Positions 3,290-39,589 of a stretch of 64,000 bases of DNA are shown piece by piece. The position numbers and the translations under genes are program-made. This DNA comes from Enterobacter phage CC31: sequence record NC_014662.1. One strand, 5' to 3'. Under the pieces are notes generated by a model that ran no database searches, was not told the DNA's origin, and saw only the letters and a list, made by a program, of their open reading frames with translations. Within the stretch, counting starts at the first letter, position 1; the number at the start of each line of letters is the position of its first letter.

Positions 3290-3835
3290 TTATAAAGCAA
3301 ATATATCGAATGTTGGTGCGTATTTTTCTTTAAATCTCTGATAGATTTCTTTCTCGTACAGATTGTAGCAAGGTATACCATGACGCTTGGCTATATCAAC
3401 GGCCACTCGTGTCCCTCCAGTAACGCTAGAGAGTTTTATTGGAGCATAGAATAGTACCATATCCACAGGTGACTGGCAATCCTCTCCGAGCACCTGAAGT
3501 GCATTGCGGGCAAATAGAGTCTTCACTATATCCCGGCACTCATCCCAGTAGCTTGTCACTTCTCTTGCTTTAATTACACTCCTGATTCTCACTTCATTTG
3601 GAAAGTCTTTCCACACCTTTACTCCAACTCCAGTTTTAAGACCATTGAAGCCTTCGTATGGTATGATACGTAATGAACGTTCACGGTCGTATCTACTGAG
3701 CCATGATTCATCTGCACCAGGAGCACCTCCCGAATACGAAAAATGGCCTGACTCCGAAAGAGCCTGACCAGTTAATGACATGACATCTAAAACACGACGT
3801 GGCGTCTCTCGAGAACCGATTAACGCCAAACGCAT
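3290..3835 (-). CDS. DprA/SLOG-like Rossmann-fold protein (function unknown), translationally coupled to rnlB
   Basis: 181 aa; start ATG overlaps rnlB stop (TAATG); motif string LALIGSR...SGGAPGADESW...TGGTRVAVDIAKRHGIPCY resembles DprA/Smf-LOG (SLOG) nucleotide-binding signature. Confidence 0.55.
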   Translation of the reverse strand: MRLALIGSRETPRRVLDVMSLTGQALSESGHFSYSGGAPGADESWLSRYDRERSLRIIPYEGFNGLKTGVGVKVWKDFPNEVRIRSVIKAREVTSYWDECRDIVKTLFARNALQVLGEDCQSPVDMVLFYAPIKLSSVTGGTRVAVDIAKRHGIPCYNLYEKEIYQRFKEKYAPTFDIFAL

Positions 3836-5210: not shown

Positions 5211-5792
5211 TTATAGAGGGATTACTTTATACTTCTTATTGCCACGAGCATCACGCTTACAAACTAATTTGCACTTCATGCCGCTTGTGATAGTGTAATC
5301 TTCATCAACCTTCATCCGCATCCAGTCTAATACCATTCCAGATGGGTTCAAAGATTTTTCAACTTCAACCATAATTTTAGTGCCAGACTTATAAAACTTA
5401 GATTCTTGTTGCTCATAGTCAGATAGTGCGCGAGCAAACGCAGATGGGCTTAAGAATTTATTATAACCGTGAGCAGCAGCCACAAATGTATTATCTAAAG
5501 CATGTTTGATATTTTTGATTACGACTGTTGCGTAACCGATGTGTTTTTCTGGATAGTGAGTCATTACAAAGTCCTCATGAACTGCGAAAGTTTTTTGATG
5601 ACGAGATTTTACATCAACATTTGATAAGCGTTTACGATAAACCACTTTCTCTTTTCGTTTAGATTTAGCTTTTGCCGATTCAACTTTAGCATAATATAAA
5701 GCTGCTTCTTCGGGTTTAATACCCGCTTCTCTCGCAATTTCAATAAAACTCAATCCGCACTCATGCTTAAAATGAATCTCAATCGGTGTCAT
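5211..5792 (-). CDS. hypothetical protein with N-terminal helix-turn-helix-like segment
   Basis: 193 aa; N-terminal ECGLSFIEIAREAGIKPEEA resembles an HTH; hairpins on both sides. Confidence 0.55.
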   Translation of the reverse strand: MTPIEIHFKHECGLSFIEIAREAGIKPEEAALYYAKVESAKAKSKRKEKVVYRKRLSNVDVKSRHQKTFAVHEDFVMTHYPEKHIGYATVVIKNIKHALDNTFVAAAHGYNKFLSPSAFARALSDYEQQESKFYKSGTKIMVEVEKSLNPSGMVLDWMRMKVDEDYTITSGMKCKLVCKRDARGNKKYKVIPL

Positions 5793-30308: not shown

Positions 30309-30498
30309 TAATGACGTTTACACGCGCAGTAGCTTCATCGTATCGAGCTTTAGCTTGCATTGTTTCTACAACAAGGTCTTCGTAAGTCAAATAACCGTCT
30401 TCCATTTGCATACGAGTTTTAGCTGAACCATAGTCAATTGCGCGAGCCTTAAGTTCAGAGATAGCGCCTTCAAGAGCCATTTTAGCAAATTTGTTCAT
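30283..30498 (-). CDS. hypothetical protein
   Basis: 71-aa ORF. Confidence 0.45.
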   Translation of the reverse strand: MNKFAKMALEGAISELKARAIDYGSAKTRMQMEDGYLTYEDLVVETMQAKARYDEATARVNVIIEEIANVH

Positions 30499-30974
30499 AG
30501 TCCAAGTGCCTCATATAATGATTTACGAATATCACGAACATCTTTACCTGCTGGTCGCATTGAACCCTCGACATCCGAAATAAATCCGTTTGCACAATTG
30601 GATTTAATTTGCCCGTAAATTGAAGCTGCTTCAATAAGCTTGTCAATCAAATCACGTTTATAGTCTTCTTCCATGCGAATGCCATACCATTCATCGTAAT
30701 CTTCAACAGGAGCAAATATTTTGAACCAAGTTTCTTCTGAAATATAAGTTTGTTCTTTGAGCTTAAAGACATGAGATGGAATAGTTTCAGTTCCAGGAGC
30801 GAATACTCTCACAGAAACTACAGTAGGCTTTCCACCAATAATTTCAAACCAGGGACTCACAGTAGCTTTACGCATCAATGGAGTTTTGTGACGGGCACCC
30901 TGCATACACAATTTGCGTAGCTGGGTCTTTTTAATTGCAGATAAGAATGAGCCATCTTTTACAAAATAACGCAT
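30495..30974 (-). CDS. hypothetical protein
   Basis: ORF with probable start MRYFVKDG; no recognisable motif. Confidence 0.5.
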   Translation of the reverse strand: MRYFVKDGSFLSAIKKTQLRKLCMQGARHKTPLMRKATVSPWFEIIGGKPTVVSVRVFAPGTETIPSHVFKLKEQTYISEETWFKIFAPVEDYDEWYGIRMEEDYKRDLIDKLIEAASIYGQIKSNCANGFISDVEGSMRPAGKDVRDIRKSLYEALGL

Positions 30975-31004
30975 ATTATTTTCCTCAAAGTTTATTATCC
31001 CGAT

Positions 31005-31020
31005 GAGGCCCGAAGGCCTC
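31005..31020 (-). terminator. hairpin GAGGCC-CGAA-GGCCTC
   Basis: Read directly. Confidence 0.45.
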
Positions 31021-31102
31021 AATTAAAACGTAACTACCATTGCAAGAGCTACGGAACATGCAACTGCAGCGATGAACAGACCGAAACAAAACAGCTTTGC
31101 AC

Positions 31103-35105: not shown

Positions 35106-37361
35106 TTAAAGCTTACATGCAGAACAATCTTCGGCTTTTGGTTTTTCGATTTCAAAATCGTCGTTACCAGAACCATCACGAGTGTTATGATAGTACAACG
35201 TCTTACCGCCAAAGTACCAGAAGTAAAGCAAGTCGTCCATCATAACAGACATTGGCACTTTACCTTTCTCATAGTTCTGAGGGTCATAGTAAGTATTAGC
35301 TGATGCAGATTGGCATACCCACTTCAACATAATAGCTACTTGAGTCAGATAAGGTTTGTTACCCTGTTTAGCAAGTTTCCATGCATAATCATAGAGGTCA
35401 GCATTCAGTTCAACATTCGGAACTACTTGGTTGAAGCTTCCTTCTTTAGACTCTTTAATAGAGACTGGACCTCGTGGCGGCTCAATACCGTTTGTGCTGT
35501 TGGAAACCTGGGAGGAGGACTCACATGGCATGAGTGCGGACAATGTACTGTTACGGATGCCATATTGCTTGAGTTCTGCACGGAGTGCTTCCCAGTCACA
35601 AACGTAATTCGGCGCCGCGAGCTGGTCAATTCTCTTATTGTACCAGTCGATAGGTAATTCGCCTCGAGACCAACGAGTGTCTTTATAATACTCGCAAGGT
35701 CCTTTTTCTTTTGCAAGTTTAATTGATGCTTTAATGAGTGCATATTGCAGCCTTTCAAACAGTTCATGAGTCAGGTCGTTTGCATCAGCGTATGTAGCAA
35801 AGTTATCTGCCAACCAAGCAGCATAGTTCGTTACACCAACACCCAATGCTCGGCGTTTAAGAGCTTTCAAAGCTTCTTTAACTGGATAACCTTGATAACT
35901 CAAGAGGTTGTCGAGTGCTCGGACTTGGACTTCTGCGAGTTCGTTAATAGTTTCTTGGTCTTGCCAATCGAAGTTGCCGAGCACGAACGCAGACAACGTA
36001 CACAGCGCAATTTCTGCGTCTTCTGAGTAGACGTCTTTAGTAGGTAACGCAATTTCTGCGCAGAGGTTCGATTGCTTAATCGTAGCCACATCACGAATAA
36101 AAGGACCATAATCACCAACGTTATCTACGAAGTAAGGATAGATACGAGCAGTACCCGAACGCTCAGTCAAGAACAGTTCAATTAATTCACGAGCTTTAAC
36201 ACGTTTCTTACGAACATCTGGGTTCTTTTCAAGAGCTTCATATTGTTCACGGAACGCAGCAGCATCTTTGAAATAGTTCTCATACAAACGACCCGCATCA
36301 ATATCCGGAGAGAACAGAGTGATGTAGTCGTCTTTAATCAGACGTTCAAACATCAGGTCGTTGATTTGAACACCATAATCCAAGTGACGAATTCGGTTTT
36401 CATCTACGCCTTTGTTGTTCTTAAGTACGAGGAGGTTCTCAACTTCAAGGTGCCAGATTGGATAGTACAATGTCGCCGCGCCACCACGGACTCCGCCTTG
36501 GGAACAAGACTTAACTGCTGTTTGGATGTGTTTCCAGAAAGGAATAACTCCAGTATGCTTGACTTCTCCGAAGCCGATTTTTGAACCTTCTGCACGAATC
36601 ATACCTGCGTTAATGCCGATACCAGCACGTTTAGAGATGTACTCTACAATTGATTCAGCTGATTTGTTAATTGACTTCAGTGAATCACCAGCTTCAATAA
36701 CAACGCAAGAACTGAATTGACGAGTAGGAGTACGAGCACCTGCCATGATTGGAGTTGGCAGAGAAATTTTCTTAGTTGACACAGCATCATAAAAACGAAT
36801 AGTGTTAACCAAGCGATTTTCACCATCATCCTGGTGCAGAGTCATACCGATGAGCATGAATGCAAACTGAGGAGTTTCGATGATTTGACCCGTGCTGCGG
36901 TCTTTAACCAGGTATTTTTCAATGAGCTGCATTGTACCAGCATACGTCATTTCAAAATCACGGTCATGAACAATTTTACTTTCAAGCAGAGCAATTTCTT
37001 CAGCAGACCATTTGGCAAGAACTTCTTTGTCATATTTGTTGTGATTAACACCAAATGAAATCTGGTCAATAAATGAACGAGGCTCAAACTGCCCATAAAC
37101 TTGCTTACGGAGATTGAACATCGCCAGATTACTTGCGACGTACTGATAATCTGGTTCTTCAATTGAAATCATTGAAGCTGCAACCTTAGTAGCTGCGCGT
37201 TGAATGTCATACGTCGTCATTCCATCTTGCAGATGTGGAACGATAGCTTGATATAGCTCATATGGGTCAACTCGGGTGTTTTCACAACCCCATTCCAGAA
37301 CCTTAATAAGTTTTTCTGGAGTAAATTCCTGAGAGGTACCACTGGACTTAATTACTTTCAT
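35106..37361 (-). CDS. nrdA: ribonucleotide reductase large subunit
   Basis: 751 aa; class Ia RNR catalytic subunit features, C-terminal CxxC tail (DCSACKL). Confidence 0.95.
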   Translation of the reverse strand: MKVIKSSGTSQEFTPEKLIKVLEWGCENTRVDPYELYQAIVPHLQDGMTTYDIQRAATKVAASMISIEEPDYQYVASNLAMFNLRKQVYGQFEPRSFIDQISFGVNHNKYDKEVLAKWSAEEIALLESKIVHDRDFEMTYAGTMQLIEKYLVKDRSTGQIIETPQFAFMLIGMTLHQDDGENRLVNTIRFYDAVSTKKISLPTPIMAGARTPTRQFSSCVVIEAGDSLKSINKSAESIVEYISKRAGIGINAGMIRAEGSKIGFGEVKHTGVIPFWKHIQTAVKSCSQGGVRGGAATLYYPIWHLEVENLLVLKNNKGVDENRIRHLDYGVQINDLMFERLIKDDYITLFSPDIDAGRLYENYFKDAAAFREQYEALEKNPDVRKKRVKARELIELFLTERSGTARIYPYFVDNVGDYGPFIRDVATIKQSNLCAEIALPTKDVYSEDAEIALCTLSAFVLGNFDWQDQETINELAEVQVRALDNLLSYQGYPVKEALKALKRRALGVGVTNYAAWLADNFATYADANDLTHELFERLQYALIKASIKLAKEKGPCEYYKDTRWSRGELPIDWYNKRIDQLAAPNYVCDWEALRAELKQYGIRNSTLSALMPCESSSQVSNSTNGIEPPRGPVSIKESKEGSFNQVVPNVELNADLYDYAWKLAKQGNKPYLTQVAIMLKWVCQSASANTYYDPQNYEKGKVPMSVMMDDLLYFWYFGGKTLYYHNTRDGSGNDDFEIEKPKAEDCSACKL

Positions 37362-37659
37362 GCAAATCCTCTAGCGTAAATGTGTCTTTGAATAATCTGT
37401 TTACTATATGAGCTATTATATCACCATGGCAAGCTTTAGGTTTACAAGTGCATCCTAATCTCATTCCACGGAGAGTCTCCAGGTGCTCACGTTTTATTTC
37501 ACCACTCCTAATACGCTTAATGAAGTCCTCTTTAAAGGCTTCAATGGCAGCCTCCCGGCTGCCAGCATTTTTACCAACGTCATTACCCCACATTGTACCT
37601 CGTTGGATATTAACGTCGAAATCGGAATGGTATTTATTAACCACTCGACAAGCTCTCAT
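37348..37659 (-). CDS. hypothetical Cys/His-containing protein
   Basis: 103-aa ORF overlapping nrdA start by 14 nt; GCTCKPKACHGD motif. Confidence 0.5.
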   Translation of the reverse strand: MRACRVVNKYHSDFDVNIQRGTMWGNDVGKNAGSREAAIEAFKEDFIKRIRSGEIKREHLETLRGMRLGCTCKPKACHGDIIAHIVNRLFKDTFTLEDLHESN

Positions 37660-37889
37660 TTAACTTCCACAATAAACCATGTATCATGAATTAATTGATT
37701 AGATTCAAGTCCGAATTCTTCAAAACCGTGCGCTTTTTCGTATGCATGGACAACGTTACGAACATAGAGACGCGCTCCACGAACTTGAATAATTGAACCG
37801 ACCTTTGGAATTTCAGAATCACGGATGTTATAAACTTCTGCGATAGGGTCTTCTTCATTATTTTGAATTACAATTCTAAGATGTGGCAT
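37656..37889 (-). CDS. hypothetical protein
   Basis: 77-aa ORF. Confidence 0.45.
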   Translation of the reverse strand: MPHLRIVIQNNEEDPIAEVYNIRDSEIPKVGSIIQVRGARLYVRNVVHAYEKAHGFEEFGLESNQLIHDTWFIVEVK

Positions 37890-38935
37890 TATGCTTTACT
37901 CACAATAACAACGCGTTCAGTAGATTCACCAACAATTTCAATGTGATGAGCCAGAACTATATGAAAATAGCCATTAATCATAATAGAAGAGTTTAATTTG
38001 AAGTCAGCATCGCACAGTTGCTCATCAGTTTGAGCATAAACGATACTTCCCAAAGCATTTGTAAATTTAGTAATCATACAGCCATTTTTTCCTTTGATTG
38101 TTGGGTGACTTTCATAGTTAACTAACTTGAAGTCTTCGATAACAGCAAATCGGTTTATCCACTTAAGCTGAGATGAAGTTTGCCAGCGCTCAAACTCAAT
38201 TGGAAAATCAATTTCAAGATTGCAGAGTTCTTTTGGCTCTCGACGAAGAATTTCTTCGCACTGCTCAATATGATTTGAATAAATGTGAGTGTTGCCGCCA
38301 GTAAATACCAAATGACCAGGTTTTAAGCCAGTCATTTTAGCTACGATATGAATCAAAGCAGCATACGACGCAATATTGAATGGTAGACCAAGGAATACAT
38401 CTACCGACCTCTGGTACCACTGGAGGTCCAGAAGCCCATTGCGTACGTTGAACTGATATATCATATGGCATGGTGGAAGCGCCATCTTAGGGATGTCTAG
38501 AGGGTTCCAGGCGGTCACAATTTGACGGCGGTCATTAGGTAGTTCTTTGATTCGGTTAATAACCAAAGTCAATTGGTCAACACCCATAAAGTCTCGCCAC
38601 TGCTTACCATAAACCGGACCAAGCTCGCCGTCGACATATCCCATTGAACGAGCTTGATTTTCGTAGTTGTCGTCCCAAACAGTTTTACCATTTGTCGGAG
38701 ACCCATGCTGACGAAGACGCAAATCGTTTACATTCGTTGAACCGGACAAGAACCACAGAAGTTCTGCAATACATGCTTTCCAAGCAAGCTTCTTGGTAGT
38801 CACTGCTGGAAAACCTTCTTGCAAATCAAATCGTAATTGAGTACCAAACACAGCACAAGTGCCAGTTCCTGTGCGGTCGTCAGTTACATAGCCTTCATCA
38901 AAGATGTGTTGAATTAGTTGTTGATATTGTTTCAT
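37889..38935 (-). CDS. td: thymidylate synthase; as sequenced fused in frame to a 62-codon downstream ORF through an A6 run (38085-38090); canonical TS end predicted near 38075
   Basis: TS motifs (DRTGTGT, PPCH active-site Cys, WNP, QWYQRSVD); with A5 instead of A6 the frame would read IKGKMAV-stop and the next ORF (MITKF...) would start at an ATGA overlap. Confidence 0.88.
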   Translation of the reverse strand: MKQYQQLIQHIFDEGYVTDDRTGTGTCAVFGTQLRFDLQEGFPAVTTKKLAWKACIAELLWFLSGSTNVNDLRLRQHGSPTNGKTVWDDNYENQARSMGYVDGELGPVYGKQWRDFMGVDQLTLVINRIKELPNDRRQIVTAWNPLDIPKMALPPCHMIYQFNVRNGLLDLQWYQRSVDVFLGLPFNIASYAALIHIVAKMTGLKPGHLVFTGGNTHIYSNHIEQCEEILRREPKELCNLEIDFPIEFERWQTSSQLKWINRFAVIEDFKLVNYESHPTIKGKNGCMITKFTNALGSIVYAQTDEQLCDADFKLNSSIMINGYFHIVLAHHIEIVGESTERVVIVSKA

Positions 38936-39282
38936 TGGTTTCCTGGACGAAAGAAGATTTCACGGCCTTGTTTATCAAAACGACCAAAAACAGTCATCGT
39001 ATTACCGGAGATAACAACGTTACCTTTAGCAATATGATGAATTGTTTGACGAGTGTTCATCATAATTTTAACACCTAAACCATGAGCAATTCTGATGCCT
39101 TCATCAGCTGCCCAAGTGTCATTGATTTCAACGTCAATACGATAAAATCCATGAGGAATTGTTTTGTACAGCTCAGGTTTACGCTTATACTGTTCAATAG
39201 TAGGAGGATTACCCTCGATTACTAAAGCCCAATTCTTTTGGGCTTCTTCTTGTATCAACGTCAAATGATTATTGATTTTCAT
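38932..39282 (-). CDS. hypothetical protein, paralog of the adjacent upstream ORF
   Basis: C-terminal KGNVVISGNTMTVFGRFDKQGREIFF matches NGNVSFSNGCVTMIGDFFKSGSQVFF of ORF 39269..39589. Confidence 0.5.
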   Translation of the reverse strand: MKINNHLTLIQEEAQKNWALVIEGNPPTIEQYKRKPELYKTIPHGFYRIDVEINDTWAADEGIRIAHGLGVKIMMNTRQTIHHIAKGNVVISGNTMTVFGRFDKQGREIFFRPGNQ

Positions 39283-39589
39283 ATTGTTCTTCCAACGGAT
39301 TGAAGAATACTTGACTTCCGCTTTTAAAGAAGTCTCCAATCATTGTAACACACCCATTTGAAAAGCTAACATTACCGTTCATTGAAGCAAGCAGTACTGA
39401 TTTCATTGAACGACAAAGCTCAATTGGATTATTTCCGGTGCCGTCATATATAGTGTACTCACCATTACGGTATTCTCTGATATCTCCAACCGCAAAGGAT
39501 AACTCATACACGCCGTGTACTTTGTTCCAGTTCTTCCATTTCTTTTGAGTTTTGTAAGTCTCTAACAAACGAAGATTATATCCGTTCAT
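39269..39589 (-). CDS. hypothetical protein, paralog of the adjacent downstream ORF
   Basis: 106 aa; shared C-terminal motif with ORF 38932..39282. Confidence 0.5.
   Translation of the reverse strand: MNGYNLRLLETYKTQKKWKNWNKVHGVYELSFAVGDIREYRNGEYTIYDGTGNNPIELCRSMKSVLLASMNGNVSFSNGCVTMIGDFFKSGSQVFFNPLEEQYENQ

Follow-up and report, generated by a model that had tools for sequence, protein, structure and literature searches.

A probable homopolymer miscall joins thymidylate synthase to a separate 62-codon gene in the deposited sequence of Enterobacter phage CC31

Introduction

Thymidylate synthase (TS) of bacteriophage T4 is encoded by td, in a gene neighbourhood (frd ... td ... nrdA) that T4 has in common with Enterobacter phage CC31. 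The T4 enzyme (1TIS) is 286 residues long and ends in ...IKGKMAV. Mutants of T4 td are viable on thyA+ hosts, where the gene is dispensable. Runs of A are the classical hotspots of spontaneous frameshift mutation in T4, as described by the Streisinger model, and the addition of one A to a run of five is, as in T4 rII, a classic product of replication slippage.

Besides mutation, several known situations may be considered when one reading frame continues into the next. In prfB, a Shine-Dalgarno-like motif stimulates +1 frameshifting by the ribosome. During transcription, efficient slippage of RNA polymerase usually needs about 8-9 or more A/T. Finally, some sequence records carry homopolymer miscalls, that is, one-base changes of a run that are private to the record, are absent from near-identical genomes and, once corrected, restore a conserved protein end.

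These situations are compared here with the 3′ end of td in CC31. The window, namely the whole stretch of DNA that was analysed, comprises 64,000 nucleotides of record NC_014662.1, and all positions refer to it unless another record is named. Genes from td to nrdA are on the minus strand. A preliminary description of the window had pointed out that td is fused to the following ORF by one A in excess, and had left error, mutation and slippage unranked as possible causes. The comparative evidence favours the first of these and speaks against the last.

The td junction in the CC31 record

In the CC31 record, td is a single frame of 348 aa (37889..38935, minus strand) by direct reading. The corresponding protein is exactly ADB81733.1 / YP_004010095.1 / UniProt E5DHW9 and was found on one contig only (165,540 bp). 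Its residues 1-283 make up a typical ThyA-type TS; residues 2-283 match PF00303 (profile positions 1-263 of 266, 321.8 bits for a cut-off of 24.3) and phrog_160 is matched as Td with an E-value of 7.8e-122. Residues 1-284 align with residues 1-284 of the T4 enzyme (1TIS, E = 6.5e-142, about 75% identical). The catalytic cysteine is present in a PPCH motif, ...KMALPPCHMIYQFNV... in CC31 being aligned with ...YMALPPCHMFYQFNV... in T4.

On the coding strand, the junction reads ...ATC AAA GGA AAA AAT GGC TGT ATG ATT ACT..., with a run of six A's at 38085..38090 (minus strand; T6 on the plus strand), where the relatives have five A's or a G followed by four A's. As the preliminary description had stated, the td frame passes the ...IKGK end and runs on into the downstream ORF. 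Removal of one A gives ATC AAA GGA AAA ATG GCT GTA TGA, hence IKGKMAV-stop and a Td of 286 aa. The native TGA (38076-38074) overlaps the start codon ATG (38077-38075) of a 62-codon ORF extending to 37889 (MITKFTNALGS...), and direct reading again bears out what had been proposed. The T4 C-terminus given on that occasion was also the right one, since 1TIS, with its 286 aa, aligns over 1-284 and ends with ...IKGKM plus two residues. Thus, with five A's, CC31 Td has the same length and the same end as T4 Td.

The TS gene proper extends over 38074..38935 (minus strand). This makes 862 nt in the record owing to the extra A and 286 aa once corrected, in agreement with PF00303, with 1TIS and with the 861-nt td of the relatives. 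The ATGA overlap between the start of the 62-codon gene and the native td stop occupies 38074..38077 (minus strand). It is present in all relatives, and in the record the td stop within it is out of frame. A Shine-Dalgarno-like AAGGA is read in the 3′ end of td (38090..38094, minus strand), where it may serve the downstream gene. This motif, which is GGGGA in some relatives, lies upstream of the ATG of the 62-codon gene by 11 nt with five A's and by 12 nt with six.

Compared with T4 Td, the record adds NGC and then 62 residues, so that the ORF as deposited continues for 65 residues beyond K283. The calculated masses are 33.0 kDa for native Td, 6.9 kDa for the small protein and 39.8 kDa for the fused product, for which the preliminary description had given too low a figure (35 kDa). 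In catalysis, TS closes its active site with the C-terminal segment (PMC6514825), and a 65-residue continuation is thus unlikely to be harmless. The known enzymes support this view, which had already been expressed. A TS has a free C-terminus soon after the ...HPxIKG/A motif; CC31 Td as deposited has none there, and recovers it when one A is removed. The best 120 T4-like Td cluster representatives in a database of 5.8 billion proteins are all 285-291 aa long. Nearly all solved TS chains among the matches listed end no more than about 9 residues from the position aligned to residues 281-284 of the query. Neither among these best 120 representatives nor among the solved structures listed was a TS with a comparable C-terminal extension found.

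On its upstream side, td of CC31 differs from that of T4 by the presence of two small genes between frd and td. These adjacent ORFs (38932-39589, minus strand) belong to the same family, both being annotated as phrog_1928 in vB_VIPECLOM01. They look like a tandem duplication, and neither has a Pfam match. The td gene of CC31 is also intronless, unlike that of T4 and of some Karamvirus relatives, which contains an intron or a homing-endonuclease insertion. In EnC07 (L010, 664-2535) and EcL8g (L009), an insertion of ~1 kb with a putative homing endonuclease interrupts td in a T4-like intron arrangement; td of CC31 is uninterrupted.

The 62-codon gene and its neighbours

The 62-codon gene (37889..38077, minus strand; residues 287-348 of the recorded 'Td') encodes a 6.9-kDa protein of family phrog_12548. 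The stand-alone protein matches this family with its residues 1-62 over profile positions 1-63 of 63 (E = 1.1e-10). When the long ORF is used instead, residues 287-348 match the same 63 of 63 positions (E = 5.5e-9) with Met287 as the start. The separateness of the downstream ORF, claimed from the reading frames, is therefore found again in a full-length family match beginning exactly at that methionine. A Pfam search of the 62-aa protein gave no match.

On 38 contigs (NCBI, IMG, ENA, Logan), exactly this 62-aa protein is called as a distinct gene, and five other phages have a 62-aa sequence with 100% identity to the CC31 one. Homologues occur in 23 distinct phage records, always directly downstream of td, with a separate annotation in 22 of the 23. 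They are full-length down to 49% identity and always start at the ATGA junction. The pN/pS of this gene is 0.13-0.43, and the 62-codon ORF is thus a real, separate gene under purifying selection. A 1.9-kb contig in the assembly of Lutimaribacter sp. EGI FJ00015 (MCO0615393-MCO0615395) also carries a partial Td, from the same 90% cluster, together with the identical 62-aa and 77-aa proteins; phage contamination is the most likely explanation for this contig.

Downstream, a 77-aa gene (phrog_2458; 37656..37889, minus strand) has a start codon overlapping the stop of the 62-codon gene (TAATG). It is followed by a nrdA.1-like DUF4326 gene of 103 aa (37348..37659, minus strand), then by nrdA (35106..37361). 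The TAATG junction and the overlap into nrdA fit the translationally coupled pattern of T4-like phages. At td itself, all relatives have the ATGA in which the td stop overlaps the following start codon, and CC31 conforms to this when corrected for the extra A. Between td and nrdA, the small genes (37348-38077; compared with relatives L007, L008, L025 and L028) form a mosaic cassette whose junctions are start/stop overlaps of 1 or 4 nt. The 62-aa gene is absent from KaAlpha and EnC07, the 77-aa gene from vB_Ent31, Pet-CM3-4 and COW86c, and td ends at 286 aa in every arrangement. An exact-sequence look-up found the same NrdA in several different phages, so that NrdA did not single out the CC31 lineage.

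Length of the A run in related phages

The alignment with other T4-like td genes that the preliminary description had called for was made with an 86-nt query across the junction, which recovered 28 records corresponding to 26 distinct phages. Of these distinct phage records, 25 have one base fewer at the junction; the only match over 86 of 86 positions is that of phage PG7. Direct reading of 16 relatives gave GGAAAAATGG or GGGGAAAATGG, always followed by IKGKMAV-stop (IKGKMSV in EnC07). These 16 include the divergent CkP1, Entb_43, COW86c and KMB19, in which the ATGA junction is kept, as well as an unrelated contig of T4-like type in which another gene follows td. In Karamvirus, td is 861 nt long (286 aa) and is joined to the next small gene by the ATGA overlap. 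Synonymous changes (GGA/GGG, AAA/AAG) occur at the junction with the frame unchanged, which shows that the frame is conserved and that selection acts on the protein end. The two-gene architecture is found in all relatives, A6 in the CC31 and PG7 records only.

Larger collections were also searched. In a metagenome scan, the junction was found on one contig, without the extra base. A viral-contig scan returned three contigs, two with A5 and PG7 itself, so that A6 occurs in none of the three viral or metagenome contigs other than PG7 (L004, L005, L027). For a 101-aa segment spanning the junction, a large protein database gave no match, likely because the fused protein, the 286-aa Td and the 62-aa protein share a single cluster, represented by the 286-aa Td.

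These run lengths bear on the idea that A6 serves a purpose, either by producing a functional fusion of Td with the 62-aa protein or by requiring a +1 ribosomal or transcriptional slippage to give native Td. The sequence AAAGGAAAAAATGGC does carry a candidate +1 shift. Movement of a P-site tRNA-Lys from AAA (A2-A4) to AAA (A3-A5) would restore ...K-MAV-stop exactly. The AAGGA motif immediately upstream recalls the stimulator of prfB, and in CC31 as in prfB-type frameshifting it directly precedes a codon allowing the P-site tRNA to re-pair in +1; A6 is moreover seen in two records. However, CC31 departs from prfB at the A site, where the zero-frame codon AAU is neither a stop nor slow or rare. 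Moreover, a recoding site would be expected to combine a conserved shift with a slippery sequence. A need to shift is missing from the relatives other than PG7, which all encode Td in one frame. The slippery sequence is not kept either, several relatives having GGGGAAAATGG, and several have GGGGAAAA, with four A's only. On the side of transcription, a run of six bases is below the length (~8-9 or more) at which RNA polymerase slips efficiently. A C-terminal extension is also lacking in the TS representatives and structures considered above. Because the shift is not conserved, the run is too short and AAU is an ordinary codon, programmed recoding is disfavoured, and we regard it as very improbable.

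Near-identical assemblies

In the phage collection searched, which does not include CC31 itself, the best match to the window reaches 95.6% over 24 kb. Much closer sequences are found in Logan assemblies. Five of them, from runs SRR31617827, SRR31617749, SRR31617811, SRR31617678 and SRR26673754, encode as protein P0003 exactly the Td expected for CC31 after correction (residues 1-283, then MAV). These assemblies share the CC31 gene order td-62-77-103-nrdA and are 98.9% (over 14.4 kb), 97.9%, 99.35% and 99.88% identical to the window, far above any GenBank relative. In the 14.4-kb alignment, the sole internal indel is the td A run. All five assemblies have A5 and none has A6. Several intergenic indels that seemed specific to CC31 when more distant relatives were compared are common to the Logan assemblies and are thus genuine features of the lineage.

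Elsewhere in the comparison set, two near-CC31 Logan assemblies, L036 (18338 region) and L037, have an extra A opposite window position 30647 (ATCAAATCAAATC vs GTCAATCAAATC). The homologue of ORF 30495..31022 is thereby cut short, with 110 aa left of about 159. The comparison set is thus not free of frameshift variants or errors of assembly either.

The PG7 record

A Td of 348 aa is also recorded for PG7 (AHI61155.1, YP_009005516.1, W6ATN0). The preliminary description had named relatives with the same extended td ORF, together with independent reads confirming A6, as evidence that would refute its reading. PG7 formally provides such a relative, but its record is not a credible independent confirmation, for the reasons that follow.

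Inheritance of A6 by both phages, through common descent or local recombination, was envisaged and rejected. Over 300 nt on either side of the run, CC31 differs from vB_VIPECLOM01, an A5 phage, by the extra A only, and from PG7 at 9 sites; with 1 versus 9 differences per 600 nt, the CC31 haplotype fits the A5 phages. The two A6 records thus have no common local haplotype. A6 is not inherited but private to the record of CC31 and, independently, to that of PG7.

The quality of the PG7 record was considered by comparing ~47 kb of CC31, PG7, vB_VIPECLOM01 and KaAlpha. In this interval, at least 10 additional 1-nt insertions are private to PG7, each adding one to a base run, and nine conserved genes are hit. 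The insertions (L021, KJ101592.1 109000-158999) lie opposite window positions 3679, 3754, 5731, 7593, 19733, 26640, 33910, 35179, 42023 and 44155. As a result, hoc appears in two pieces, denA and nrdB form one fused ORF of 1662 nt, and several genes lose length, namely nrdA (2187 nt for 2256), alt (2091 nt for 2136), gp59 (600 nt for 654), a DprA-like gene and three small ones. RefSeq NC_023561 inherits these insertions. A viable phage with all these defects is implausible. Judged by this comparison, the PG7 record appears error-rich, and its A6 does not count as credible support for a real fusion.

A coincidence is nevertheless to be considered. There are about 150 runs of at least 5 bases in 50 kb, and the other PG7 insertions are in none of the long ones. 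Yet CC31 and PG7, from different laboratories, disagree with all other records at one shared run, with the same additional A. This is odd for random errors, and would point to an artefact specific to the site, to curation of PG7 against CC31 or to a mutational hotspot. A general correction of PG7 against CC31 was rejected, other CC31-specific indels being absent from PG7; a curation limited to td is a guess.

Considering a hotspot, it might be imagined that the run toggles so often between A5 and A6, in the manner of a contingency locus, that a consensus may catch either state. The occurrence of +1 A on two unrelated local haplotypes goes in this direction. However, none of the 25 other records, of the 5 Logan assemblies or of the 3 other contigs has A6, and the second case comes only from a record with many obvious insertion errors, so that we give almost no credit to such hypervariability. 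A more elaborate version would have A6 real in both phages as a recurrent Streisinger hotspot leading to the 39.8-kDa fusion, with low-level +1 slippage of tRNA-Lys on A-AAA-A, beside the Shine-Dalgarno-like AAGGA, rescuing some native Td. The run would then act as a leaky, reversible switch of dTMP supply; we consider this scenario very unlikely.

Origin of the extra A

Two explanations deserve a fuller comparison. In the first one, the frameshift would be genuine and private. The sequenced stock would carry A6, produced by +1 A replication slippage and fixed by plaque purification. CC31 would then make the 39.8-kDa fusion of Td with the small protein, its TS being impaired or inactive, and the 62-aa protein could possibly be obtained by internal initiation at Met287. 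The defect would be tolerated because the ThyA of the host supplies dTMP. Several observations go in this direction. Over 14.4 kb, the CC31 record is otherwise free of indels with respect to its nearest relatives, and is not error-rich. A runs are frameshift hotspots in T4, td mutants grow on thyA+ hosts, and frameshifts, natural or at the level of assembly, do occur in the group (the +1 A of L036 and L037). CC31 was, in addition, isolated and grown on E. coli B, according to a review of T4 relatives in which the sequencing method used for CC31 is not stated. The analogy with the T4 hotspots has one limit, namely that the additional A of CC31 is seen in a record only.

Against a genuine frameshift, A6 is absent from the 25 other phage records and from the five near-identical assemblies. 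Nothing downstream has decayed, the 62-aa sequence being that of five other phages. An A6 run would easily revert, and conservation of Td extends to the whole group. Finally, a private mutation of CC31 leaves the identical change in PG7 unaccounted for. Taken together, these points make a genuine frameshift rather unlikely.

In the second explanation, A6 is a miscall of homopolymer length, arising in base-calling or assembly of the deposited CC31 sequence, and we consider this probable. One A too many would have been called in the A5 run near the 3′ end of td, giving rise to the 348-aa ORF. In the real CC31, td would encode the 286-aa enzyme ending in ...IKGKMAV, and the TGA/ATG overlap, with the AAGGA motif in the 3′ end of td, would couple translation of td to that of the 62-aa gene. 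The extra base would bring td into frame with the downstream gene. As no premature stop results and the ORF stays long and intact, annotation probably had no reason to raise a flag.

The signature of such artefacts is found at this position. The difference is of one base in a homopolymer (A6 vs A5), is private with respect to the nearest relatives (the five Logan assemblies and 25 of the 26 records), and its correction restores two conserved products, the 286-aa Td identical to P0003 and the 62-aa phrog_12548 protein. In these respects, CC31 resembles faulty records such as PG7. It differs from a record of the PG7 type in being otherwise clean in the compared region. With no other internal indel in 14.4 kb, an error is not what would be expected from generally poor sequence. 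The CC31 record dates from about 2010, and a literature search found no paper discussing the length of td in CC31 or PG7. On balance, we infer from these comparisons that an error, rather than a mutation in the sequenced stock, is most likely.

Concluding remarks

A second apparent gene fusion is present in the CC31 record. At 5211-5792 (minus strand), CC31 has one ORF of 193 aa where vB_VIPECLOM01, KaAlpha and PG7 have two overlapping genes, of about 80 aa (phrog_1566) and 117 aa (phrog_7636). The two frames are joined by two 1-nt insertions 12 nt apart (5567, 5579), in a locally divergent patch, one of the insertions being in an A run (CATCAAAAAACT vs CATCAACAACT).

Regarding td, the 348-aa thymidylate synthase of the CC31 and PG7 entries is probably not a real protein. 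The effects are visible in other genomes. In at least seven newer ones (AS6, EnA02, ZX13, fGh-Ecl01, EnC15, RZH and CkP1), the 62-aa ORF bears the name 'dTMP thymidylate synthase' or 'dTMP synthase', likely by homology transfer from the fused entries; among the loci compared here, L003, L011, L013, L014, L018, L019 and L023 carry this mislabelled ORF. The fused entries also cause Td and the small protein to be merged in one 90% sequence cluster. The main value of the present observation thus lies in database curation rather than in biology. If the extra A were real, CC31 would be a natural td-defective T4-like phage, of modest interest for the host dependence of nucleotide metabolism.
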